This document shows positions 9,616 to 24,655 of a DNA stretch of 56,345 nucleotides, piece by piece. Each line of letters begins with the position of its first letter. Positions within the stretch are counted from its first letter, which is position 1. The DNA comes from a bacterium. GTDB taxonomy: Bacteria > Bacillota_I > Bacilli_A > RF39 > UBA660. The position numbers and the translations under genes were made by a program. A model generated the notes under the pieces. That model was not told where the DNA came from. It saw nothing but the letters and a program-made list of their open reading frames with translations, and made no database searches. The stretch covers positions 1 through 56,345 of the forward strand of contig JAUNSN010000003.1 of assembly GCA_030539175.1 (NCBI GenBank). Reading direction: 5' to 3'.

Positions 9616-11676
9616 CTATTTTTGTTTTACAAGTATTTTTTTAGGCTCGTTATAGATATACAATTTATGCTGAGCTCTAGTACATGCAACATAATACAAA
9701 TTTTTTTCGTTTTCATCATAATCTTTTGGTGTATCATTGCAAATTATTGCACCATCAAATTCCAAACCTTTAGATAAATATGCAGGAATTATAATAATAG
9801 GTTTTTTTACATTTGATGAAGACGATGAAATTAATTGAATACTTTCATCATCGTTAATCATTTTGCATAATGTTTTTGCTCTTTTTAAATCTCTTGTTAT
9901 TATTGCAATTTTAACTAATTCCTCCTTAGTCATTTTATTAATATCTTGTAATAATAGAGGTATAAGACTAGCTTTTTCCACATTTTTTATATCAACAAGC
10001 ATATTATTATTTTTTCTTATTGAACAAACATTATTTAAGCCTAATATTTTATTCGAGTATTCTATTATTTCTTCACTAGATCTATAAGTCTTGTTTAATT
10101 CCAAATATTTTGAAGTTGGAATTAAAGAAACTAAACTTTCTAATGTGTTACTCTTTGAATATGGATTAATCGTTTGATTTATATCTCCTAATATTGTAAA
10201 CGATGAATTTTTAAAAACTTTTTTTAATATTTCTATTTGAAAAGGGGTATAATCTTGGGCTTCATCAATAACAATCTGTCTGATACTATTATCAAATGGA
10301 AAGCCTTTTATTGCGAAATGAATATACAACAAACCAACAACATCTTCGTAATTAATCATATTTCCTCTAATTTCATTATAACCTTTAGACTTCAAAAAGC
10401 AGTTATAAAATTCAAGTAGATTGATTAATAATCCAATTTTTTTAAGTAAATAACTTCTAACATTTTTAACATTTTTTTTAATTGAAACACCCGCTTCAGA
10501 ACATATATATTTGGAAATTTCTTCGATTCTATCAATAATGGCTCCCTTATTGTAGCGAACTAGGAATAACTTTTTTAAAATATCATTAGAAAATTGTTTC
10601 TCTCCGAAAATTAAACCGTTTCCAAAATCTATATTATTCAAATAATCTTTTATGTATTGTTCTAAATCACTTTTATAAGTTGTACACATCTTATATTCAA
10701 TATCAGGCGATGCAAAAATACGTTTAGAATAAATTCTATCCAAATATTCACTAAAATTTTCAATTTTCTTATGCAATTTTAAATGACAACTAGCAAATTC
10801 ACTAAATGTTAGCTTTTGGACATTCTCTTCGCCTAATTCTGGTAATACATCAGAAATATAATCAGAAAAAACATTGTTTGGTGAAAAAATCAAAATATTA
10901 TTAGAATGCAAATTTTTATCTTTATATAATAAATAAGCAATTCGATGCAACGCAACTGAAGTTTTTCCTGAACCAGCAACTCCCTGTACAATGAGATATT
11001 TATCTTTATCATTTCTTATAATTTCATTTTGTTCACGTTGAATAGTGCTAACAATATTTGTCATTTTTTCGTTGGCTGAATTAGATAAAATTTCTTGTAA
11101 ATAATCGTCATCAATATTTATATCGCTTTTAAAACATCTTATAATTTCGCCATTTTCAATTTTAATTTGCATCCTAGTCAATATTTCTCCTACAATTAGT
11201 CCTCCTGGAGTATCATATTGGGCATTTCCTAATTCATAATTATAAAACAAACTTGAAATCGGTGCACGCCAATCAAAAACATAAAAACTAGCATCATCAT
11301 GTATAGAACACATACCAATATATATTTCCTCAGTTTCTTTATATTTATTATTTTTAAAAACTAGTTTTGCAAAGTATGGATTGCTTTTTGCTTTTTCATA
11401 TTTACTAATTAATTTTATTCTTTCGTTTGTAAGTTGTACATTTTGATTTACTTCATACAATGCAGCACCCATTTCTAAATCTGTATAATCTGTTTGATTA
11501 TCCCACATAAATTTTTTTATATTATTTATGTTTTCTTTATCATATTCAATAGATTTATTCTTTTGGGCAATTATTTCAGCTAATATTTTTTTCACAATTA
11601 ATAAATACTCTTTCTCTCTTTTTAATTCCTTTTCACTAATATTCATTTTTCTATCATTTTCCCTTCTATATGACAC
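9616..11676 (-). CDS. helD: UvrD-like helicase, HelD (helicase IV) type
   Basis: Walker A VQGVAGSGKTSVALHRIAYLLY, VIDEAQDY, and C-terminal LSKGLEFD/YVACTRAQHKL motifs of superfamily 1 helicases, with a long N-terminal extension as in HelD. Start is uncertain: GTG at 11676 or ATG at 11646. Confidence 0.8.
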   Translation of the reverse strand: MSYRRENDRKMNISEKELKREKEYLLIVKKILAEIIAQKNKSIEYDKENINNIKKFMWDNQTDYTDLEMGAALYEVNQNVQLTNERIKLISKYEKAKSNPYFAKLVFKNNKYKETEEIYIGMCSIHDDASFYVFDWRAPISSLFYNYELGNAQYDTPGGLIVGEILTRMQIKIENGEIIRCFKSDINIDDDYLQEILSNSANEKMTNIVSTIQREQNEIIRNDKDKYLIVQGVAGSGKTSVALHRIAYLLYKDKNLHSNNILIFSPNNVFSDYISDVLPELGEENVQKLTFSEFASCHLKLHKKIENFSEYLDRIYSKRIFASPDIEYKMCTTYKSDLEQYIKDYLNNIDFGNGLIFGEKQFSNDILKKLFLVRYNKGAIIDRIEEISKYICSEAGVSIKKNVKNVRSYLLKKIGLLINLLEFYNCFLKSKGYNEIRGNMINYEDVVGLLYIHFAIKGFPFDNSIRQIVIDEAQDYTPFQIEILKKVFKNSSFTILGDINQTINPYSKSNTLESLVSLIPTSKYLELNKTYRSSEEIIEYSNKILGLNNVCSIRKNNNMLVDIKNVEKASLIPLLLQDINKMTKEELVKIAIITRDLKRAKTLCKMINDDESIQLISSSSSNVKKPIIIIPAYLSKGLEFDGAIICNDTPKDYDENEKNLYYVACTRAQHKLYIYNEPKKILVKQK

Positions 11677-11712
11677 TCATAACGAAAATCTTTATTATAT
11701 AAAACAATTAAT

Positions 11713-12609
11713 TTAATATAAAACTGGCAAATTCTTCATTATCAAAGCTATCAATTTTTGAATTTTTAAAATGTAATTCTCATTATCAATATTCATTAAA
11801 TAAAAGTGAATATAGGCATTGATTAAACACCATTTTAAAAGATCCTTATCAAAGGTTGTAACTTTTTGATACCCTTGCAAAAAGTTAAAAACATCTTCCC
11901 AATTATCCATAAAAACTTGTGTCGGTCTTAAAACAATTGCCCAAGCAATATCTTGTTCTTTTAATCCCTTTCCACTATATTCATAATCAAGAACACCTAC
12001 AATTTGTTCTTTTTTCCATAAAATATTTGCATAATGAAAATCACCATGAATAAATGAATTGTATTTAATATTCGGTTTATTATCACGTAAATATTTAATA
12101 TAATTTTCAGCGAACGCATCCGTTTTTCGATAAAAATTCTCCTTAGGAAAATCATTTATCGGCCTTTGTTTTGCTACATCAAACTTTAAATATGGAATTT
12201 GGTGTATTTTTGCTAACTCTTTACCATACTTTTCTAAAAAATTTTTACGTCTTACGATATAGCTTTTTTTATTTATAAATTCTGATAATCTACGACCATT
12301 AACTTTTTCTAAAACAATATATTTTTTTTCATTAATTATTCCATGCTCAATTATAGGTGGCATTTTTTCATAATAACCATTATTTTTTAGTAAAGAAATA
12401 TTCTTTACCTCAGCAGCAAAATCAGCCATTTTACTTCGTTCTATTTTTATAAAAAGAGGTACACTCCTTTCATTATATATACATTTACATTCTACAACAT
12501 CATTACCAGCTGGCAAATAATTTATTATTTTTTGAAGTTGGATCTTTTTAAAACTAATTTCCTTTGGATTGATTTCCAACTCACGCCATTTTGGATATAT
12601 CATTTTCAT
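11713..12609 (-). CDS. APH/choline-kinase-fold phosphotransferase
   Basis: Catalytic loop FIHGDFHYANILW and metal-binding VLDYEYSG. Strong RBS AAGGAGG overlaps the end of the upstream PP2C gene. Confidence 0.8.
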   Translation of the reverse strand: MKMIYPKWRELEINPKEISFKKIQLQKIINYLPAGNDVVECKCIYNERSVPLFIKIERSKMADFAAEVKNISLLKNNGYYEKMPPIIEHGIINEKKYIVLEKVNGRRLSEFINKKSYIVRRKNFLEKYGKELAKIHQIPYLKFDVAKQRPINDFPKENFYRKTDAFAENYIKYLRDNKPNIKYNSFIHGDFHYANILWKKEQIVGVLDYEYSGKGLKEQDIAWAIVLRPTQVFMDNWEDVFNFLQGYQKVTTFDKDLLKWCLINAYIHFYLMNIDNENYILKIQKLIALIMKNLPVLY

Positions 12610-12618
12610 AAGTCCTCC

Positions 12619-13479
12619 TTAAATCCTTCTAGTTAAAATTGCAACACTCATATTATCATCTCCACCTAATTTTTCATTGTAATACTCTTCTGAAGATAAC
12701 TTATTATTTAATGAAAAATTATTGATACTATATTCTATTATATTTCTGGGTTTATCAAAGAAACTTGAATTATCTATAATTCTTTTTAAATCGTTATCAG
12801 AAACAGAATCAGTAATGCCATCTGTAAACAAGAAAATATTATCATATTGGTTATTGTTTAAACTTATAGTTTCTATTGAAAGCAATTTTTTGGTACAACC
12901 TAACCTAGATATTATCAAATTATTCTCTTTATGAAATCTAATATCATCTTTTTTTTGAATTGTTCCATTCATATACTTAAGCCAAGCAATAGAAGCATCA
13001 TTAGTAATTTGGACAAAATGATTATTAAATTCGGTATATATCCTTGAATCACCAATATTTATAAAAAATGTTTTTACAGAAGATACAATGGCAAGTGAAA
13101 GTGTCGTTCCACCAGCATTACATGTATGCCTAATGTTAATATCAATCCAATTCATTAATGTTTTTAATTCTTGTAAAATTTCTATTTCGGTATAATAATA
13201 TGAAAATGGAGCATTAACAAACCAGTTTATAATATTATACACAGCTATATTACTAGCTTTTCCACCAAAATCCAAACCGCCCATACCATCTGCAACTGCT
13301 AACAATTTAAAATTTTTATTACTTGGATGTTCCATTATTAGTATAGAATCTTCTTGATTTTTTCTTCTTCCAATATGAGAACTAGCACACATATTTTTCA
13401 AATAATAATTTATACTTTTATAATTTTGTTGCCTGTTATTTATAATATCATCAACACATGAAAAAAATCTTTTTTGCAT
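12619..13479 (-). CDS. PP2C-family Ser/Thr protein phosphatase
   Basis: GRRKNQEDS, LAVADGMGG, LFTDGITD and GGDDNMSVAIL, the PP2C metal-binding motifs. 10 nt downstream of the rSAM gene. Confidence 0.85.
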   Translation of the reverse strand: MQKRFFSCVDDIINNRQQNYKSINYYLKNMCASSHIGRRKNQEDSILIMEHPSNKNFKLLAVADGMGGLDFGGKASNIAVYNIINWFVNAPFSYYYTEIEILQELKTLMNWIDINIRHTCNAGGTTLSLAIVSSVKTFFINIGDSRIYTEFNNHFVQITNDASIAWLKYMNGTIQKKDDIRFHKENNLIISRLGCTKKLLSIETISLNNNQYDNIFLFTDGITDSVSDNDLKRIIDNSSFFDKPRNIIEYSINNFSLNNKLSSEEYYNEKLGGDDNMSVAILTRRI

Positions 13480-13489
13480 AACTCACCAA

Positions 13490-14752
13490 TTAAAAAGTGT
13501 ATGGTAAAGAAGCCATATCGAAAGAACGACAACTTTTTGCACCATTTTTGCATTTATATAAAGGGCATCCTCCAAAACAATCTGGTAACATCTTGCATTT
13601 TATACATTCAGGATCTGCGAACGCTGACATACAACTTTTATACCAAGCAATTACTCTTTCTGGTTTTAAAATAATTTTACCATTGTTATCTATTTTTCCA
13701 ATACAAGCATCAGTATATCCAATATCATTAATACATTTCCAAATGCTTAAGTCGGGCATTAAATAAAACATTTTTCTATCACCACAAGCTTCACAACTTT
13801 GATAATTATATTTTTCTCTTAAAACATTAAACCCTAAATTGTCTCCTATTTCAAAATAAGGCTTTAATTCGGTAATATTGTTCAAGTTTTGTTCTTTATA
13901 AGAATGCGTATTATAAATAATTCTAAACATCAAATAAATATGTTTTCTAGTATTTTTATTAATTTGTTCTAATGTACATTTTATTTTATCTACATTAGTA
14001 TTATTTAAATTTATTCTTAAAATGAATTTAAAATTTTCCAAGTTCGTAGTTAACGGGACTAATGTATTGATTTTATCAATTAAAAAGTCAAATGAAGGTG
14101 CTCCGTTTTTAAATATTCGCATAGTATCATGATTTTCTTTATCAGAATCAATAGTAATTTGCAAAGCATACAAATTATGTTGTAACAATTTGACCAAAAT
14201 GCTTTCGGTTAATAGAGAACCATTAGTGACAATGCTTGTAAAATATTCATAATTTTTTATATTAGAATCATTTTTTACCCAGTTAAGAAATTCCAGGCAT
14301 TCATCTACAAAAAGCAAAGGTTCTCCTCCAAATAAACTAATTTGCACATGATTATGTATTTGAAAATTTTTTTCAGCATATTTTTTTAAAACAGCAAAAT
14401 ATTTCTTTATATTTTCCTTTCCACAACTATAACCCTTTTCACAACAATATGGACATTTAAAATTGCATGCCAAAGATGGAACTAAAATAATATTAAAAAA
14501 GTCTGTTTCAAAAAATTTTTGTTCATATATATACTTTATTTCGGAAAATTCATCTCTATCGTCATCAACAATAAATCCATTTTCATATAACATTTTCTTT
14601 TCTCTTACATTAAGTTTATTAAAATTATCTATATCTTCAATAAAACTAACATCGGCATTTTTTTCTAAAAAAATACTCGCCTTAGAAAAAGCATTATAAA
14701 TTAACACATTTTCAGCATATTTTTTTATTAAATTGTATTTACTTATTTTCAT
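13490..14752 (-). CDS. radical SAM enzyme with C-terminal SPASM-like Cys-rich domain (peptide maturase type)
   Basis: LACNFKCPYCC (CX3CX2C), GGEPLL, and C-terminal CEACGD..WKCIND..C..CIKCKMLPDCFGGCPLYKC. About 95 aa precede the cluster motif, where an RRE could sit. RBS GGAGGG. Confidence 0.88.
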   Translation of the reverse strand: MKISKYNLIKKYAENVLIYNAFSKASIFLEKNADVSFIEDIDNFNKLNVREKKMLYENGFIVDDDRDEFSEIKYIYEQKFFETDFFNIILVPSLACNFKCPYCCEKGYSCGKENIKKYFAVLKKYAEKNFQIHNHVQISLFGGEPLLFVDECLEFLNWVKNDSNIKNYEYFTSIVTNGSLLTESILVKLLQHNLYALQITIDSDKENHDTMRIFKNGAPSFDFLIDKINTLVPLTTNLENFKFILRINLNNTNVDKIKCTLEQINKNTRKHIYLMFRIIYNTHSYKEQNLNNITELKPYFEIGDNLGFNVLREKYNYQSCEACGDRKMFYLMPDLSIWKCINDIGYTDACIGKIDNNGKIILKPERVIAWYKSCMSAFADPECIKCKMLPDCFGGCPLYKCKNGAKSCRSFDMASLPYTF

Positions 14753-14770
14753 AAACCCTCCAAATATTAA

Positions 14771-14790
14771 AAAAGTGAATTATCACTTTT
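14771..14790 (-). terminator. weak hairpin immediately after the precursor stop (possible partial terminator or attenuator)
   Basis: AAAAGTGA-4 nt-TCACTTTT, a perfect 8-bp AT-rich stem. On the minus strand it is followed by TAATATTT and then the rSAM RBS. Confidence 0.3.
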
Positions 14791-14910
14791 TTAATTAGCA
14801 ATACAAAATCCATTGCCTGTACATGCACATGCATCTAAATTATTAAGAACTGATATTTCTTTTTCTTCATCCATAGATTTTCTTATACTTGTATATGCGT
14901 TTGGTTTCAT
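14791..14910 (-). CDS. 39-aa Cys-rich precursor-like peptide MKPNAYTSIRKSMDEEKEISVLNNLDACACTGNGFCIAN
   Basis: First gene behind the promoter at 14957..14985 and 38 nt upstream of the rSAM gene. Charged leader-like N-terminus, three Cys in the last 13 residues. No strong SD; alternative starts are GTG at 14934 (47 aa) or ATG at 14874 (27 aa). The 79-aa track ORF would start upstream of the promoter. Confidence 0.6.
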   Translation of the reverse strand: MKPNAYTSIRKSMDEEKEISVLNNLDACACTGNGFCIAN

Positions 14911-14956
14911 TTTATTTAATTTTAAGATTTTCACTATTCCATTTCTCTTTATAAAT

Positions 14957-14985
14957 ATTTTAATAGAACGAATAAAAAAAGTCAA
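14957..14985 (-). promoter_or_regulatory. sigma-A-type promoter TTGACT-17 nt-TAAAAT for the peptide/rSAM operon
   Basis: Read on the minus strand: the -35 element is at 14980..14985 and the -10 at 14957..14962, with an exact 17-nt spacer, about 45 nt upstream of the ATG at 14910. Confidence 0.55.
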
Positions 14986-15038
14986 GAATTGTATGGTAAT
15001 TGTATTCACAAAAAAGGATAAACACCGCACTAAATGTA

Positions 15039-15067
15039 TTGCTATAAATAAATTTATCAGTTATAAT
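15039..15067 (+). promoter_or_regulatory. divergent promoter TTGCTA-17 nt-TATAAT for the 15088 gene
   Basis: The -35 element is at 15039..15044 and the -10 at 15062..15067. A GGAGG RBS follows, 9 nt before the ATG at 15088. Confidence 0.55.
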
Positions 15068-15087
15068 TAAAATGGAGGCAAGACAAA

Positions 15088-15474
15088 ATGAGTAAAGTAA
15101 AAATTACATGTAATAATAATTACAAATTTCATTCATATAATGGTTATTCATATCATAGTAAGGGTTGTAATAAAGACTTTTTTGTCGATATAAATAATAT
15201 TTCTCCCTATATAATTAATAGTCCCTGTGACAAACTTACTATTTTAGTTGTACCATGCCCTTATTGTTATGAAATTATTGAACTATCTAATTTAACAAAA
15301 GATCAACGAGATAAAATATTACAAACATCCAAAGATATTGATCCATATATACAAACTAGTATATTAGATTTACAAAGAGATAAATATAATATTAAAAAAC
15401 TATTAACAACCGTATCAGAACAACTAGAAAATCAACAAAAGCATTATACAAAACAATTAAAACAACCAAAATAA
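15088..15474 (+). CDS. small Cys-containing protein of unknown function (possible zinc-ribbon plus coiled-coil tail)
   Basis: Good RBS and promoter. Cys at ITC, KGC, SPC and CPYC. The C-terminal third is K/Q-rich and helical-looking. Confidence 0.6.
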   Translation: MSKVKITCNNNYKFHSYNGYSYHSKGCNKDFFVDINNISPYIINSPCDKLTILVVPCPYCYEIIELSNLTKDQRDKILQTSKDIDPYIQTSILDLQRDKYNIKKLLTTVSEQLENQQKHYTKQLKQPK

Positions 15475-15484
15475 TGGTTGTTTT
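15459..15484. terminator. bidirectional hairpin between convergent genes
   Basis: AAAACAACCA-6 nt-TGGTTGTTTT, a perfect 10-bp stem spanning both stop codons. Confidence 0.5.
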
Positions 15485-15947
15485 AATACTTACTGGCACT
15501 ATTTATAAGTAAGTTATAAATATTTATTGTACAAATTAAATTTAATCTCTTTATTCGTAAATCTTGACTATATATTTTAGCAATTTCACTATCTAATTGA
15601 TGCTTTTTTAGTACTTCAATATACATATCTATATAATTATCTAAGAATACTAAATAATTATTTCTACTAACCATTATATTATTAATATCTTCTTTTATTA
15701 TAGCATTATAATCATTATCTATCTCAATATCTAAAATAACATAATCATTATTACTAATACCATCAAATATTTTACGATAATTATCAAAACTCAAATAATC
15801 ATTAAATGTTATATCATAATTTCTATATCCATTACTAATATCACTTTCTTCATTAAAAACTAATTTACTATTATTTTTATGAAGCCAAGAGTAACAGCAA
15901 ATACTAAACAAAAAAACAATTATAAGAGACAATATTTTTATTTTCAT
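15483..15947 (-). CDS. hypothetical exported or membrane-anchored protein
   Basis: N-terminus MKIKILSLIIVFLFSICCYSW looks like a signal peptide. No recognisable domain. Confidence 0.5.
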   Translation of the reverse strand: MKIKILSLIIVFLFSICCYSWLHKNNSKLVFNEESDISNGYRNYDITFNDYLSFDNYRKIFDGISNNDYVILDIEIDNDYNAIIKEDINNIMVSRNNYLVFLDNYIDMYIEVLKKHQLDSEIAKIYSQDLRIKRLNLICTINIYNLLINSASKY

Positions 15948-15984
15948 ATTATCACCCTATAATTATTATTAGCAATTTTATAAA

Positions 15985-16419
15985 TTAAATTCTTTTAACT
16001 TTAGTTAATTTATTAATACGAGAATTAACCATTTCCATACATTCATCAAATAACAAAAAATTCTTAGTTGCAGCGACTAAACTTAAATTACTATTTTCAT
16101 CTTTAACATCCAATATCATCGTACCATCCTGCTTTTCGTAGTGTTCATATACTAAATCACTTGCTAATTCTAATAATTGTTTTATTAACCATTTAGCATC
16201 ATTCTTTTGTATATTAAAATATAAAGCACAATAATTATTTTCTTTTTGAGAATTTGTAGACAAATTACCAGCTTCTATTAAAACTTGACGTTCTTCATGA
16301 ATATATTTAAAAGCAATTCCTAAATCTGAAGTTTTAAAACATATATCAAATAAAGGAAGAATTTGAAAAAACTCTCTTCTAACCAAATTAGTTGAACTCA
16401 AACTCACATTTCTCAACAT
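15985..16419 (-). CDS. hypothetical cytoplasmic protein
   Basis: 144-aa ORF preceded by GGGAGGTG. No recognisable motif. Confidence 0.5.
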   Translation of the reverse strand: MLRNVSLSSTNLVRREFFQILPLFDICFKTSDLGIAFKYIHEERQVLIEAGNLSTNSQKENNYCALYFNIQKNDAKWLIKQLLELASDLVYEHYEKQDGTMILDVKDENSNLSLVAATKNFLLFDECMEMVNSRINKLTKVKRI

Positions 16420-16528
16420 AGTTATAAATCACCTCCCATAACTAATATTTTATATTAAATAGAATAACTATACAATAGTTACATTAACATTTATTATATA
16501 AAATACATATAATATGGTAGGTGATAAT

Positions 16529-16732
16529 ATGTTTTTAAATATTATAAATTTTTTAAAGTTATGTGTTGGTTGGCGATTATTTTGTTTTGTAATATCTTTA
16601 GTACTTACTATTGTCGTTCTTTATCAAGCGATATTAACAGTATTTTTCACTATTAAACTAAATGCTTTTATACTTTTAATTGAATATGTTGCCTTACTTT
16701 GTTCAACTGGTTATACTATTTTCGGATATTAA
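16529..16732 (+). CDS. small hydrophobic protein (two predicted TM segments)
   Basis: ATG at 16529 follows GGTAGGTGA. The product is almost entirely hydrophobic. Its 3' end overlaps the convergent 16703..17593 gene. Confidence 0.35.
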   Translation: MFLNIINFLKLCVGWRLFCFVISLVLTIVVLYQAILTVFFTIKLNAFILLIEYVALLCSTGYTIFGY

Positions 16733-17593
16733 TGCTAAGGTCTTATATAAATAATCAATTGATTTTCTTACCTTTTTACATAATTCATATTGACTACCAG
16801 TAAGAGAAATTTTATCAGGTATACAAAGTATAACAAAGAGTAATAGTTTTTCTTCTTCCATTAATGGATATATACTTTCATAATACTTAAATATTTCGTT
16901 AAAATCAAAATCTAAATAATGTTTTTTATAAAGAACATATATATCATATATTGGCATATCAATTTTACTTTTTTCCCAACTGATAAAATAACTTTTATCA
17001 TTTTTTATATAATGTTCTAATTCTAAATTATTATGAATATTTACTACTCTTTGTCTTCTTTTATCTTTAATTAACTTATACCATTTTTCTAACGTTTTCT
17101 TACTATAATCAATAGATTCATATATTATATTAATATTTCTAGCAATCAAATAACTAACTGGTGACATATATACTTCGCTTTCAATTATATTAATAATATC
17201 AGTATAATAATTATATAAGTATTCAATATTCTTTAATAAATCTTCATATATCTTCTTATAATCATCAATATCCACTTCTTTATAAAAGGTAGTCTTACTA
17301 TGTAACATTGCCATTAATTTTACTAAATCTAATATTTTTTGTTCGCTAGGTTCATCATAATCACTAATATACTCAAATACATCATATTCTGGATCATTAA
17401 TTATTTTATCAGGATAATAATTAAAAGCTCGAGATTTTAAATAATTATAAACTGCATCTATGTTATTATTCTTTTTCTTTTTTATAACATATTTTCCCTT
17501 GTTAGTATCAAGTATACGAACATCTTTTTTTTGTGTGTATCTATTTAATTCTAACTTATATTTGTTTAAAAAATCTTTAACACTATTCATCAT
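16703..17593 (-). CDS. CotS/YsxE-family spore-coat kinase-like protein (degenerate catalytic loop)
   Basis: VNIHNNLELEHYI sits where kinases carry HGDxxxxN, and ISWEKSKIDMPIYDI is an IDWD..P..D-like motif. Overlaps the spoVID-like gene by 11 nt, matching the Bacillus spoVID-ysxE order. Confidence 0.5.
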   Translation of the reverse strand: MMNSVKDFLNKYKLELNRYTQKKDVRILDTNKGKYVIKKKKNNNIDAVYNYLKSRAFNYYPDKIINDPEYDVFEYISDYDEPSEQKILDLVKLMAMLHSKTTFYKEVDIDDYKKIYEDLLKNIEYLYNYYTDIINIIESEVYMSPVSYLIARNINIIYESIDYSKKTLEKWYKLIKDKRRQRVVNIHNNLELEHYIKNDKSYFISWEKSKIDMPIYDIYVLYKKHYLDFDFNEIFKYYESIYPLMEEEKLLLFVILCIPDKISLTGSQYELCKKVRKSIDYLYKTLALISENSITS

Positions 17594-18329
17594 TACTATA
17601 AGGAATTATTAATTTATCACCTACCTTTATTTCCGTTAAATCATTATAACTAGCAAGTATTTCTTTAGTAACTTTATATTTTTGTAAAATATTATCTAAA
17701 TTGTCTTTTTCTTTTACAATATATACTTTATATGTAACAAAAGTCTCATTATTATCAATATTTTCAAAAACATCAATATCTACTACATCATCATTTGCAT
17801 TATTCACTTTTTCTTCTAACTCCAAATCTAAATTAACGACATCTTTTTTCTTAAAAACTACACTCATATCTTCTTCTAAATCAAGACATCTATTATCCTC
17901 TTTATCTTCTTTTATGTTATCTATTTCTTCTATCTTATTGGTTTCCTTTATTATTTTGTCTTTTTCTAAATTATCCCGAGAATCAGACATAATATCAGTA
18001 TTTTTAAGTTCAGCACCCTCAATATATACATCAATATTAACTTTTAATATATCGTTATTAATTATCTCATAATAAAAATCTTCTATATCAATAACCATAT
18101 TATTAATATCAAATCTTGAATCCATCGCTATATCAAATGGTAACGTAAAACTAAATGGTTCTTTGTTAATACTAGCCTCAGTCATTTTATAATCTCCGCT
18201 AATATGAAATTCACCACTTATAAGACTATCTTCTTCTAAAGAAAGAGTATGTTCTAGGGAAATGCTAGTAATTTCTGTAATTTGTGTTTTAAACTTTAAC
18301 TCTTTTTTAAAGGGAATAACTTTTTTCAT
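17583..18329 (-). CDS. SpoVID-like sporulation protein (N-terminal SPOCS-like region, acidic middle, C-terminal LysM)
   Basis: C-terminal YKVYIVKEKDNLDNILQKYKVTKEILASYNDLTEIKVGDKLIIP is a LysM motif. The N-terminus ITSISLEHTLSL..ISGEFHISGDYKM resembles the SpoVID N-domain pattern. Confidence 0.55.
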   Translation of the reverse strand: MKKVIPFKKELKFKTQITEITSISLEHTLSLEEDSLISGEFHISGDYKMTEASINKEPFSFTLPFDIAMDSRFDINNMVIDIEDFYYEIINNDILKVNIDVYIEGAELKNTDIMSDSRDNLEKDKIIKETNKIEEIDNIKEDKEDNRCLDLEEDMSVVFKKKDVVNLDLELEEKVNNANDDVVDIDVFENIDNNETFVTYKVYIVKEKDNLDNILQKYKVTKEILASYNDLTEIKVGDKLIIPYSNDE

Positions 18330-22354: not shown

Positions 22355-24655
22355 CTATTCTATTGTTATATTACCAAGAATATGTTTTTGTACTCTTAGT
22401 AAATCAACCAAAGTAACATTATTATCATTATTAACATCAGCAGCTTTCCAATAAGCCCCATCTAAATTAATAGATTTTAGTAATCGCTTTTGAATGCGTA
22501 ATAAATCAACCAAATTTATTGTCCCATCGCCATTATTATCACCCAATACAACAGCAGTATAATTTTTAGATTTATTATTACTATTAATTGTTACAACATC
22601 ACCAGTTGCGAAATTACCACTAGCTTTAGTCCCACCATTTTTATCCCTTATCGTAATATTGGATTTATTCTCAATACTAGTAATTTTTGATTTAAAATCA
22701 CCAATAGATGATTTAATAGTCAAACCAGTTATATAATAATCATCATGCTTATATGAACTTTTATTCATGATATCATCAGGGTTTAAAGAAGTAACAACTG
22801 GTATATTAGTATCAGTATTTTTATCACTATCATCAATATCAGGAGTTGAACCAGTATCAGTATTTGGAGTTGAGGATGTATTTTTAACAAAAACAATTGA
22901 ATAAGTTCGACTAGTATTATTTTCCGCAGTCACAACAATATTAGCAGTAGTTCTCGTTGAATTTAACGATATTGTACCTGTACCACTTACATTAGAAGAA
23001 GCACTAATCTTCGTCGCTCCCACAGTTACACTAGATGTTGAAGCATCAACACCATATTCATAAGTAGTAACATCTTGAGTAAAATTTTCTAACTTAATCC
23101 CATTAACAGAAATGCTTGATAAATAATTATTACTATTAGCACTTTTCGTTAAAATAGTTTTTTCTGGCATATTACTATAATAAGGAATATAAAAGACTAA
23201 GTTTTTATCTAATATTGATAAATCAACATATGAATTATAAGTCTTTATTGCTTCACTACGCGGTGCCATAATATTAGTCATATACTGATAAGTATATTTA
23301 GTATGAGTAGCAGTAGGTGCAACATTAAACCTTTGAAAATAAGTTGTATACTGCCCAGCATTAATATATTTAGAAGCTAAATAATTCATTCCGCCTTCAA
23401 TTGAACTTTCTCTTGTTTTCCAAGGACGTCCATATGACGTTTCCGTACCATTTTCACCACCATTTGCCCATATTAACCCAGCTATTGCTGGCCGTTTATA
23501 AGCAAATGCGCCAATATTATAAAAATTATAAATTCCAGTATAAGTTTGTCCATTACCTTTTTTATAAACGCTATCATATTCATAAACAAAACTCTCGCCA
23601 GTTGAAGCAACAGAACTATAACCTATTTCTTGTCTAACTCGAGAAGCCGAATGAATAGGACTTATATTGTATTTACTAGCTCCACTCATAAACGAAGATG
23701 CCAAAGATGAATAACTAGTATCAGCAATTATCTGATTTACCGCTTCAACTGTTTGATAACTTGACTGGTAAGACCAATCCTCAAACATCATAATACTCTT
23801 TTCACTTAAATTATTTCGAGGATCCATATAATAAGCAACCGTATTACTATTAGCCGCATACCACCCTGGTTCAATTTGATTATAAGTATCATTTGATGAA
23901 TTATAAGAACCATCCGCTAAAGAATAGTACCCCTTATCATAAGAAGAATATATCAAACTAGTTCCTACATAACTCTCAGCTGTTACTGATGCTTCCCAAT
24001 CTAAAGAAGTATTAATTGCTTTAAATATCCAATTAGGATACTTTGCATGAAGAACAATTAAGCTACCCCAATAAGTTGTTGGAAAACCTTGATTTTGTAA
24101 ATAAGATTTGAAAGATGTAGCTTCCGAATTCGATAATAAAGATGATGGATCAGTCGTAACAAAATCACCAGTTATATATGCAACATCATCATGAATCAAT
24201 ATCTTATACCAATTATTACTATAAGAAATTATATTTACTCTATCACCAACATTTAAAGTTTCCATAACACTAGAAGACGTAGAAGGCGAAGTACGAACAT
24301 TTACCTTTGTTCCAGTAACATATCCAACTTGCAAATTATCATTTACTGAAACCCCAGTATCAGTAGATAAAGAAACAAATTCTCCACATATATATGCAGT
24401 TTGATTATTATAATTAATTTGAAACCATTTAGAACATGAGTTATTAGCTCCAACACTTGTATTTGTAACCGTTAATTTTGTTCCACTATTAACACTAGTA
24501 ATAACATTAGATAAACTATTAGTATCAGTTGAAGTTCTAATTCTTACTCCATTACCCGTTACAGTAGCTGATATAGAAGCCAATACAGGACTAGAAAAAG
24601 CAAATGATGATACTACTAAAGATATAATCATAATATAATTAAGTATTTTTCTCAT
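22355..24655 (-). CDS. secreted peptidoglycan hydrolase: 2x SH3b, glucosaminidase, cadherin-like beta-sandwich, type I dockerin
   Basis: Signal peptide. SH3b patterns (GVRIRTSTDT..WFQINY; VNVRTSPSTSS..WYKILI). Glucosaminidase-like YNFYNIGAF and GQYTTYFQRFNV. C-terminal duplicated Ca-loop segments DNNGDGTINLVDLLRIQKRLL and DVNNDNNVTLVDLLRVQKHIL. Confidence 0.75.
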   Translation of the reverse strand: MRKILNYIMIISLVVSSFAFSSPVLASISATVTGNGVRIRTSTDTNSLSNVITSVNSGTKLTVTNTSVGANNSCSKWFQINYNNQTAYICGEFVSLSTDTGVSVNDNLQVGYVTGTKVNVRTSPSTSSSVMETLNVGDRVNIISYSNNWYKILIHDDVAYITGDFVTTDPSSLLSNSEATSFKSYLQNQGFPTTYWGSLIVLHAKYPNWIFKAINTSLDWEASVTAESYVGTSLIYSSYDKGYYSLADGSYNSSNDTYNQIEPGWYAANSNTVAYYMDPRNNLSEKSIMMFEDWSYQSSYQTVEAVNQIIADTSYSSLASSFMSGASKYNISPIHSASRVRQEIGYSSVASTGESFVYEYDSVYKKGNGQTYTGIYNFYNIGAFAYKRPAIAGLIWANGGENGTETSYGRPWKTRESSIEGGMNYLASKYINAGQYTTYFQRFNVAPTATHTKYTYQYMTNIMAPRSEAIKTYNSYVDLSILDKNLVFYIPYYSNMPEKTILTKSANSNNYLSSISVNGIKLENFTQDVTTYEYGVDASTSSVTVGATKISASSNVSGTGTISLNSTRTTANIVVTAENNTSRTYSIVFVKNTSSTPNTDTGSTPDIDDSDKNTDTNIPVVTSLNPDDIMNKSSYKHDDYYITGLTIKSSIGDFKSKITSIENKSNITIRDKNGGTKASGNFATGDVVTINSNNKSKNYTAVVLGDNNGDGTINLVDLLRIQKRLLKSINLDGAYWKAADVNNDNNVTLVDLLRVQKHILGNITIE

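Follow-up and report, generated by a model that had tools for sequence, protein, structure and literature searches.

Peptides that the ribosome makes and that are then modified after translation (RiPPs) by radical S-adenosylmethionine (rSAM) enzymes provide a rapidly expanding supply of new peptide chemistry and of gut-microbiome effectors. The window examined here, a 56,345-nt stretch of bacterial DNA (GenBank assembly GCA_030539175.1, contig JAUNSN010000003.1, positions 1 to 56,345; GTDB lineage Bacillota_I, Bacilli_A, RF39, UBA660), contains a locus at which genes for a small cysteine peptide and an rSAM/SPASM enzyme are packed together with genes for a PP2C-type phosphatase and a kinase of the aminoglycoside phosphotransferase (APH) fold. 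What kind of system is this, and what might a kinase and a phosphatase do beside a peptide maturase? The locus is very probably an rSAM RiPP operon. Our best explanation of the whole, which we hold with slightly less than even confidence, is a five-gene operon encoding the precursor, the rSAM/SPASM maturase, the PP2C, the APH-fold kinase and a fifth protein, HelD. Its features, in the order of transcription, are as follows.

14957..14985, minus strand: candidate sigma-70-like promoter TTGACT-17-TAAAAT, upstream of the precursor gene, 10/12 match.
14791..14934, minus strand: precursor gene, 47 amino acids (aa) from GTG 14934, MKILKLNKMKPNAYTSIRKSMDEEKEISVLNNLDACACTGNGFCIAN, with more than 40 homologous small open reading frames (ORFs).
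14766..14795, minus strand: 13-bp hairpin ATTAAAAAAGTGA-TAAT-TCACTTTTTTAAT, which overlaps the stop codon of the precursor gene; a short AT-rich run (ATATTT) comes after it.
13490..14752, minus strand: radical SAM/SPASM maturase, 420 aa (PF04055 8e-11; TIGR04085 32.7 bits, cutoff 27).
12619..13479, minus strand: PP2C-type Ser/Thr phosphatase, 286 aa, cytoplasmic, catalytic motifs intact (PF13672 4e-16).
11713..12609, minus strand: APH-fold (eukaryotic-like) kinase, 298 aa, with the catalytic loop HGDFHYAN and D208 in LDYEYSG (PF01636 5e-15).
9616..11648, minus strand: class I HelD, an RNA polymerase recycling motor, about 676 aa from ATG 11646 (MNISEKELK) (NF041464, HelD_BACSU, 496.8 bits, cutoff 419).

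The ORF listing bears out the four tightly packed minus-strand genes described in an initial annotation of this DNA, with intergenic gaps of 38, 10 and 9 nt in the order peptide, rSAM, PP2C, kinase. Every motif cited there is found in the translations (CNFKCPYC and GGEPLL; AVADGMGG, DGITD and GGDDN; HGDFHYAN and LDYEYSG), and the four profile matches listed above for the maturase, the PP2C and the kinase agree with its family assignments. Ribosome-binding sites precede the rSAM gene (GGAGGG), the PP2C gene (GGTGAG) and the kinase gene (AAGGAGGA), the last of these overlapping the PP2C stop. The unit does not end with the kinase at 11713, as was first thought: the HelD gene follows on the same strand, starting 64 nt past the kinase stop with no terminator detected between them. 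At the other end, the TTGACT-17-TAAAAT site had been called a consensus promoter. The site is present, but matches of this kind are frequent in such AT-rich DNA (22-26% GC; 46 promoter-like matches observed, 36.6 expected), so that taken alone it is weak evidence for a promoter. No regulatory RNA or riboswitch was matched in Rfam at E ≤ 1 across positions 9300-16600. Each protein has hundreds of homologs, and more than 40 loci keep a small ORF upstream of the maturase; the locus therefore lies far beyond what chance would produce. The neighboring ORF at 15088-15474 and two further ORFs upstream of the promoter, at 15483-16419, were considered as members of the unit and rejected, since they have no family match and are not conserved beside the cluster elsewhere. 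The first of them, a divergent, Cys-rich plus-strand ORF of 128 aa directly upstream of the operon promoter, carries CxxC-like pairs (CNNNY...GC and PCPYC).

The start of the precursor is best judged from its homologs. Most begin MKI[IVL]K[VL]N, a motif that the window reaches only from GTG 14934 (MKILKLNK...), so translation probably starts there, eight codons upstream of ATG 14910, giving 47 aa in place of the 39 originally proposed. Independent gene callers predict a 44-aa gene at the same position in three related loci (L164-L166). The precursor comprises a leader, a C-terminal core (LDACACTGNGFC) and an IAN tail. Across the 34 closest maturase loci, the small upstream ORF nearly always has (L/N)DAC-x-CTGN and then C or GxC at its end; DACxCTGN is common to more than 40 small ORFs upstream of related maturases, and more distant precursors read NQCxCTD..C. 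This C-terminal core, DACxCTGN(G)xC, is very short and contains two or three Cys; its Asp, two Cys, Thr, Gly and Asn are invariant. In L125 it ends at ...DACKCTGN, and the minimal unit is therefore two Cys together with Asp, Thr and Asn, a composition that would fit Cys-to-side-chain or Cys-to-backbone thioethers. The precursor matches no NCBIfam model even at E = 1, and the DACxCTGN family appears to be uncharacterized. A four-Cys core (C-L-DACTCTGNC, in which an additional Cys precedes the Asp by two residues) is found where a second SPASM maturase replaces PP2C, in L007, L145 and L147, and also in L012 and L015; Cys count and maturase count appear to go together.

The 51-nt stretch that contains the hairpin folds at -12.7 kcal/mol, and a hairpin of about 10-16 bp occupies the same position in all 23 related loci folded, with differing sequences and with longer stems in a few relatives that have no kinase. 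A hairpin between structural and enzyme genes is the usual device by which bacteriocin operons maintain an excess of precursor mRNA. Here it is likely an attenuator or an mRNA-stabilizing structure placed between the structural gene and the enzyme genes, and it probably keeps precursor mRNA in excess over enzyme mRNA.

In the maturase, the cluster motif CNFKCPYC (C96-x3-C100-x2-C103) is invariant across 31 homologs, as are C320, C340, C383, C386, C392, C396 and C408, and C323 is at least 90% conserved; the SPASM motif CxxCx5Cx3C corresponds to C383-C396. The top sequence match among solved structures is the SCIFF thioether maturase CteB (5WGG, 4.6e-21). An AlphaFold2 model with a predicted local distance difference test score (pLDDT) of 90 aligns over its full length with CteB in Foldseek (437 columns), with further matches to TigE, anSME, SuiB and SkfB. 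The initial annotation had noted an N-terminal extension of about 95 aa at the usual place of a RiPP recognition element (RRE). Residues 1-80 of the model, at pLDDT above 90, form three strands followed by three helices, a predicted topology that we consider RRE-like, but no Pfam match to PqqD was found in the maturase.

The maturase scores below every curated NCBIfam equivalog cutoff (given here as bits/cutoff). The best score is for CefB (NF038107, 170/600), followed by TIGR04463 (154/525), Clo7bot (TIGR04334, 142/600), PapB (NF047865, 78/340), CcpM (TIGR04068, 64/500) and SCIFF (TIGR03974, 55/425), with the geopeptide model also below cutoff; the distant relatives L014, L018 and L029 likewise fall below all NCBIfam rSAM equivalog cutoffs. 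Placement in a non-peptide clade, for which the anaerobic sulfatase maturases were the suggested example, was rejected: TIGR03942 gives 48 bits against a cutoff of 349, and no sulfatase was identified among the conserved neighbors.

A scan of one genome per GTDB species, queried with the alignment of the 31 homologs, returned 78 maturase loci; neighbor clustering and annotation of representatives covered the 34 closest. Family members occur in Clostridia, Spirochaetes, Elusimicrobia, Izemoplasmatales, Methanothrix, Methanoperedens and a Nanoarchaeota metagenome-assembled genome (MAG); by larger groups, the spread takes in Firmicutes and methanogen-related archaea. Relatives at 29-50% identity carry ABC exporters (ABC_tran and ABC_membrane), some with an additional ~320-aa unknown protein or a second SPASM maturase, and kinase, PP2C and HelD are all absent from their neighborhoods among these 34 loci. 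It is because of the rSAM and SPASM motifs, the full-length structural match to CteB, the conserved precursor and hairpin, and these RiPP-like relatives with ABC exporters or a second SPASM maturase that we assign the locus to the rSAM RiPPs. The original proposal of a RiPP-type locus is upheld in its conserved Cys core, its SPASM maturase and its CteB-like model including the N-terminal domain, while its thioether product is suggested by analogy only.

Two observations on the wider family stand beside these results. The DACxCTGN/NQCxCTD core accompanies the maturase in archaeal MAGs (L018, L022 and L024) and in L020 and L029-L034, with Anaerolineales also represented; for so short a core it is unusually invariant across two domains, in a family of which we found no description. 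A protein of about 290-340 aa without a Pfam or NCBIfam match is encoded in five relatives that lack the kinase (L016:11223-12218, L021:11196-12215, L025:10533-11483, L026 and L028:11399-12274), 3' of the maturase or, in L025, of the second rSAM gene. It adjoins or precedes the ABC exporter pair where the sequence allows, and may be a partner such as a protease or an immunity protein.

Closer to the window, all loci at 47-72% identity with sequence past the maturase come from low-GC gut 'Bacilli' MAGs, and the two complete MAG chromosomes with related loci are about 1.3 Mb each. The order maturase-PP2C-kinase is identical in L001-L006, L008, L010, L011 and L017, the exception being L007 (maturase-second maturase-kinase). 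PP2C-kinase junctions consist of 1-nt gaps or 4-8-nt overlaps, and kinase start codons overlap or abut the stop of the PP2C or second rSAM gene. Kinase-linked maturases form one clade in a neighbor-joining tree, with kinase-less Clostridia loci as its sister; their monophyly holds down to about 47% identity, and, among the loci collected, no clade member with readable downstream sequence lacks the kinase. Although the outer flanks are rearranged and the lineage shows little synteny, the five genes keep their order. The linkage to PP2C and kinase on which the initial annotation had staked its proposal is accordingly both conserved and monophyletic. One metagenome contig has genes for an rve-type integrase and for a resolvase some 1.4 kb upstream of its precursor gene (L166:1816-3112), a hint that the cluster can adjoin mobile DNA.

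Does the kinase then belong to the peptide? The database search returned more close kinase homologs than close maturases, and the first two kinase homologs examined, at 55-58% identity, stand alone. A kinase-centered scan of metagenome contigs gave 75 loci, and contexts were counted for the 33 kinases that remained after dereplication at 95% identity and had enough flanking sequence. Thirteen lie in maturase-PP2C-kinase-HelD clusters, three in maturase-second maturase-kinase-HelD clusters, and two each in maturase-PP2C-kinase and maturase-kinase arrangements; the remaining 13 are alone at their loci. HGDxxxxN and the Mg-binding Asp are invariant among the homologs, with the orphans keeping every catalytic residue. 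Orphan kinases nest inside most major groups of cluster kinases in the kinase tree, and the two contexts can occupy one genomic locus. L001 reads P-type ATPase, precursor, maturase, PP2C, kinase, HelD, one further gene and ABC-F, and its counterpart L122 has the same ATPase, 46 nt, the kinase, NUDIX and other genes, and ABC-F. Likewise, L119 (maturase, PP2C, kinase, HelD, rpsO, PNPase) corresponds to L120 (AMP-ligase, hybrid histidine kinase, kinase, small ORF, rpsO, PNPase). Of the 33 kinases, then, 13 stand alone, scattered in the tree among cluster kinases and in some cases at a shared genomic locus, and these comparisons indicate that the kinase is not dedicated to the peptide. A pair of ~600-aa proteins beside orphan kinases was tried as ABC transporters and rejected, being an AMP-binding ligase and a hybrid histidine kinase/response regulator. 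At 52102-55841, about 40 kb from the cluster, the window itself encodes an AMP-binding ligase and, adjacent to it, a ~600-aa protein that has a receiver domain at its C-terminus; this ligase/receiver-protein pair directly flanks the orphan kinase in L118, L120, L148 and L151.

Among solved structures, the best sequence match to the kinase is a putative fructosamine-3-kinase (FN3K-like, 3JR1), with APH(3') also matched, and the model (pLDDT 92) superposes on APH(3')-Ia with a TM score of about 0.6. The kinase could be a lineage-wide housekeeping enzyme with some other substrate, for example a metabolite or a protein under FN3K-like repair, with HelD and the peptide/maturase/PP2C cassette placed around it by circumstance, leaving a RiPP unit of precursor, rSAM and PP2C. 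Orphans that are common, equally conserved and interleaved with cluster kinases would fit this, as would the same-locus pairs in which the kinase is kept while its neighbors change. We consider it unlikely, given a five-gene order that holds while the outer flanks shuffle in a low-synteny lineage, kinase starts that overlap or abut the preceding PP2C or second rSAM stop, the monophyly of the kinase-linked maturases to about 47% identity, and the lack of any kinase-less member among the collected maturase-clade loci with readable downstream sequence.

The phosphatase is distributed differently. Its nearest solved structure is Stp1 (5F1M, 3e-15), although it scores only 116 bits on the Stp1 equivalog model, below the cutoff of 230. 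Across 20 cluster PP2Cs the metal-binding motifs RxxxED, DGxGG, DGxxD and DN are kept, and R39, Q42, E43, D44, D64-G65, G143-D144-S145-R146, D220-G221, D224 and D275-N276 are each at least 95% conserved. This subfamily (at least 38% identity) is seen only inside the cluster, and its paralogs at 32-36% identity are ordinary stand-alone PP2Cs. PP2C is missing from five of the 20 kinase-linked clusters, with a second rSAM gene in its place in three of the five. The pairing of kinase and PP2C that first drew attention to the locus is thus real as a conserved linkage, but its PP2C half is dispensable.

One use for a kinase in a Cys-peptide cluster would be tailoring: the kinase would phosphorylate the core Thr, elimination would give dehydrobutyrine and then a (methyl)lanthionine-type ring, and PP2C would act non-canonically or in proofreading. 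The APH-fold kinase has an intact catalytic loop, a single invariant Thr lies between core Cys, and published work documents APH-like kinases in class V lanthipeptide, thioamitide and kintamdin pathways (PMC9486802, PMC7794033, PMC9415263). Those systems (LxmK/TvaC with a HopA1-like lyase) resemble the locus in a stand-alone APH-fold kinase and a Thr/Cys core. They differ in that no HopA1/LxmY-type phospho-lyase or cyclase is found here, the conserved neighbors being only rSAM, PP2C or second rSAM, kinase and HelD; a PP2C is present and keeps a canonical hydrolase active site; close kinase homologs persist outside the cluster, where precursor and maturase are absent from the locus; and the obvious ring-former is the rSAM enzyme, not Michael addition. 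The Thr, which the initial annotation had pointed out in connection with phosphorylation, is equally invariant in the many relatives without a kinase and is therefore no evidence for phosphorylation-driven chemistry. We know of no PP2C that acts as a lyase. Weakened by the invariance of the Thr without a kinase, by the missing lyase, by the orphan kinases and by the quarter of clusters that have no PP2C, tailoring appears quite improbable.

The most distinctive co-conserved partner is HelD, which the four-gene description had left out. In nearly all kinase-linked Bacilli loci it comes after the kinase in the same orientation, 7-71 nt downstream, while the other flanks vary. Sixteen of the 20 rSAM-linked loci, but none of 13 kinase-only loci, have HelD beside the kinase (Fisher p = 5e-6 for the full set and 2e-4 for the kinase-centered sample alone, from loci that are not independent). 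HelD is therefore tied to the peptide genes and not to the kinase as such. This suggests that HelD was co-acquired with the kinase and lost with the peptide genes, in a role tied to production. The flanking copies tested on NF041464 score above its cutoff of 419 (516 bits in L001; 588 upstream and 470 downstream in L005). A second HelD paralog sits directly upstream of the precursor in six loci (L005:5648-8182, L006:7738-9735, L008:7811-9769, L009:744-2708, L010:7754-9733 and L017:7739-9730), and these upstream copies form their own clade. HelD brackets the cluster on both sides in four of the six; L010 has no downstream copy, and the L009 contig stops earlier.

How might the five products work together? 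In the mechanism that we propose, the maturase would use its RRE-like domain at the N-terminus to bind the 47-aa precursor by the leader and, by analogy with CteB and PapB-type enzymes, would use radical chemistry and auxiliary iron-sulfur clusters to link the Cys thiols of the DACxCTGN core to neighboring residues, the invariant Asp, Thr and Asn being candidate acceptors. The product would be a small ribosomal peptide with Cys-derived cross-links, and the hairpin after the precursor gene would hold precursor mRNA above enzyme mRNA. Kinase and PP2C would form a phosphate on/off switch on the peptide, whose only universal hydroxyl is that of the core Thr. The kinase would neutralize the peptide, as APH-family enzymes do aminoglycosides, viomycin and capreomycin, and the producer-specific PP2C would reverse this, so that the switch would serve self-protection or activation and not ring formation. 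HelD would protect or recycle RNA polymerase (RNAP), either because transcription is the target of the peptide or because HelD is needed during its production.

We favor this protective role for kinase and PP2C, as a tentative proposal, because the orphan kinases persist, PP2C occurs only with the maturase, the nearest folds are antibiotic-modifying APH enzymes, and no lyase or cyclase is present. With the kinase in producers and non-producers alike and its antagonist PP2C only in producers, the pattern resembles that of a resistance gene and an activator. Phosphorylation-based producer self-resistance is well known for streptomycin (the AphD kinase and the StrK phosphatase) and for viomycin and capreomycin (Vph and Cph); StrK is an exported enzyme of the alkaline-phosphatase type, and such resistance kinases also occur in non-producers. 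The likeness is that a biosynthetic cluster contains a kinase of the APH family, accompanied in one of these cases by a deprotecting phosphatase. Those products, however, are not ribosomal peptides, the PP2C here is cytoplasmic, and phosphorylation of the peptide is putative. Paeninodin-type phosphorylated lasso peptides, whose RiPP clusters contain an HPr-kinase-like tailoring kinase, also have a cluster kinase that acts on a peptide hydroxyl; their kinase fold and lasso scaffold differ, and they have neither phosphatase nor rSAM enzyme.

A different reading places the phosphate on proteins. Kinase and PP2C would then act on the maturase, HelD or RNAP and time production, in stationary phase or sporulation, instead of modifying the peptide. 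The PP2C is nearest to protein phosphatases of the Stp1/IreP type (116 bits), a YsxE-like sporulation gene lies nearby, relatives carry SpoIVA and SpoVIF, and HelD is co-conserved. A signaling kinase of this kind seems doubtful, as the enzyme is APH/FN3K-like and not of the Hanks type, its nearest structures are small-molecule kinases, it occurs without PP2C, HelD and maturase in 13 of 33 loci, and clusters that lack PP2C retain it.

Alternatively, the product could stay inside the cell, as a cofactor, a metal ligand or a modulator of RNAP or HelD whose state is set by phosphorylation, and not be an exported antibiotic. Unlike in the ABC-linked relatives, neither an exporter nor a leader protease was found in the conserved unit or among the large ORFs of the window; the core is invariant to an unusual degree in bacteria as well as archaea, the genomes are small (~1.3 Mb for the two complete chromosomes with relatives), and both enzymes are cytoplasmic. 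In the closest relatives outside the clade, however, there are ABC exporters, an indication that the product of the family is secreted. Moreover, close relatives differ in whether they have the peptide genes, a pattern more usual for accessory, competitive functions than for a cofactor. We give an intracellular factor a low probability.

Several points weigh against our own proposal of a cross-linked peptide held under a protective switch. The maturase reaches no equivalog cutoff, with CefB the nearest, and the thioether chemistry of the product, of sactipeptide or ranthipeptide type, is inferred by analogy with characterized maturases. Neither an exporter nor a leader protease was found in the conserved unit or among the large ORFs of the 56-kb window, and a secreted antibiotic is therefore not established. 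Kinase and PP2C both look cytoplasmic, which carries the risk of a futile cycle, and the pair is not obligatory, five of 20 clusters having no PP2C. A housekeeping function that has nothing to do with the peptide would explain the orphan kinases equally well. HelD is absent beside them, where immunity to an external peptide would predict its retention, as for the kinase. The trees are neighbor-joining trees, and the loci are not phylogenetically independent.

The connection to transcription is the most speculative part of the proposed mechanism. HelD occupies the secondary and primary channels of RNAP, and HelR displaces rifamycins from RNAP in actinobacteria. These activities, together with the gain and loss of HelD alongside the peptide genes, make RNAP an attractive candidate target; we rate a link of the peptide to HelD and RNAP as rather unlikely. 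The protein here is a bona fide class I HelD whose co-gain and co-loss with biosynthetic genes resembles the behavior of a target-protection resistance gene; unlike the HelR case, no counterpart of the rifamycin-associated regulatory element is seen, and the RNAP link is purely inferential. We know of no RiPP cluster with HelD. The most complete version, in which an RNAP-acting rSAM peptide is phospho-gated at Thr, with the kinase as immunity factor, PP2C as activator and HelD clearing the peptide from RNAP, is improbable as a whole. If it were true, the locus would be the first case of RiPP phospho-prodrug self-resistance and would hold the first HelD-type immunity gene in a peptide cluster.

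How new is the system? CteB (SCIFF), PapB (freyrasin), SkfB and AlbA share with it the CxxxCxxC motif, a full-Cys SPASM domain and a short Cys precursor upstream, as well as, by prediction, an RRE-like N-terminus, and its best sequence or fold matches fall among the sactipeptide and ranthipeptide maturases (CteB 5WGG, TigE, SuiB and SkfB). It departs from these systems in scoring below their equivalog cutoffs, in its DACxCTGN(G)xC core, and in having no exporter and carrying PP2C, APH kinase and HelD instead. Full-text literature searches for an rSAM RiPP with kinase and PP2C, for the core-motif strings and for the nearest NCBIfam family names, with subscription-only papers outside their scope, returned nothing relevant; no NCBIfam model was found for the gene combination or the precursor. 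An archaeal-bacteriocin preprint was considered as a description of the family and rejected, as it concerns subtilosin. A conserved rSAM/SPASM RiPP cluster with this distinctive set of PP2C, APH kinase and HelD is thus apparently undescribed, as the initial annotation had supposed for the four genes it recognized; the locus is real and conserved, and is not categorically new.

The Bacilli clade adds to the rSAM RiPPs a gene set, PP2C, APH kinase and HelD, that we found in no described RiPP class. If kinase and phosphatase do act on the peptide, they would represent a new logic for controlling or resisting a RiPP and would explain widespread 'orphan' APH-like genes of the gut that are now annotated as aminoglycoside phosphotransferases. 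A functional tie between HelD and the peptide, should there be one, would indicate RNAP as the target and extend HelR-type target protection beyond rifamycins.

An rSAM enzyme, a kinase/phosphatase pair and a UvrD-like helicase could also be seen as anti-phage defense with a viperin-like rSAM component. PADLOC does return weak matches, to pVip for the rSAM core (2e-15), to GajB/DRT helicase models for HelD and to PD-T4-6 for the kinase. These are generic at the superfamily level, and the rSAM enzyme contains a SPASM domain and a predicted RRE-like domain and is accompanied by a conserved precursor, while the helicase scores 497 bits on the HelD model. A defense role is very improbable, and a known anti-phage system was rejected, the PADLOC matches being only to a generic rSAM core, UvrD and kinase lobe.

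Elsewhere in the window, a YsxE-like spore-coat protein of kinase fold (TIGR02904, 2.6e-28, below cutoff) adjoins a 248-aa protein whose C-terminus is LysM-like by eye (16703-18329). The pair resembles spoVID-ysxE of Bacillus, and the small-genome host therefore appears to sporulate. At 22355-24655, bacterial SH3 repeats and a C-terminal type I dockerin domain occur together in one 766-aa protein, a surprise for a Bacilli MAG with a reduced genome. A tRNA gene was found nowhere in positions 1-56345. Over its whole length the window has strongly negative GC skew (-0.12 to -0.44 per 2 kb), and the minus strand carries almost all ORFs of at least 150 aa; it is apparently one replichore, read against the leading strand.

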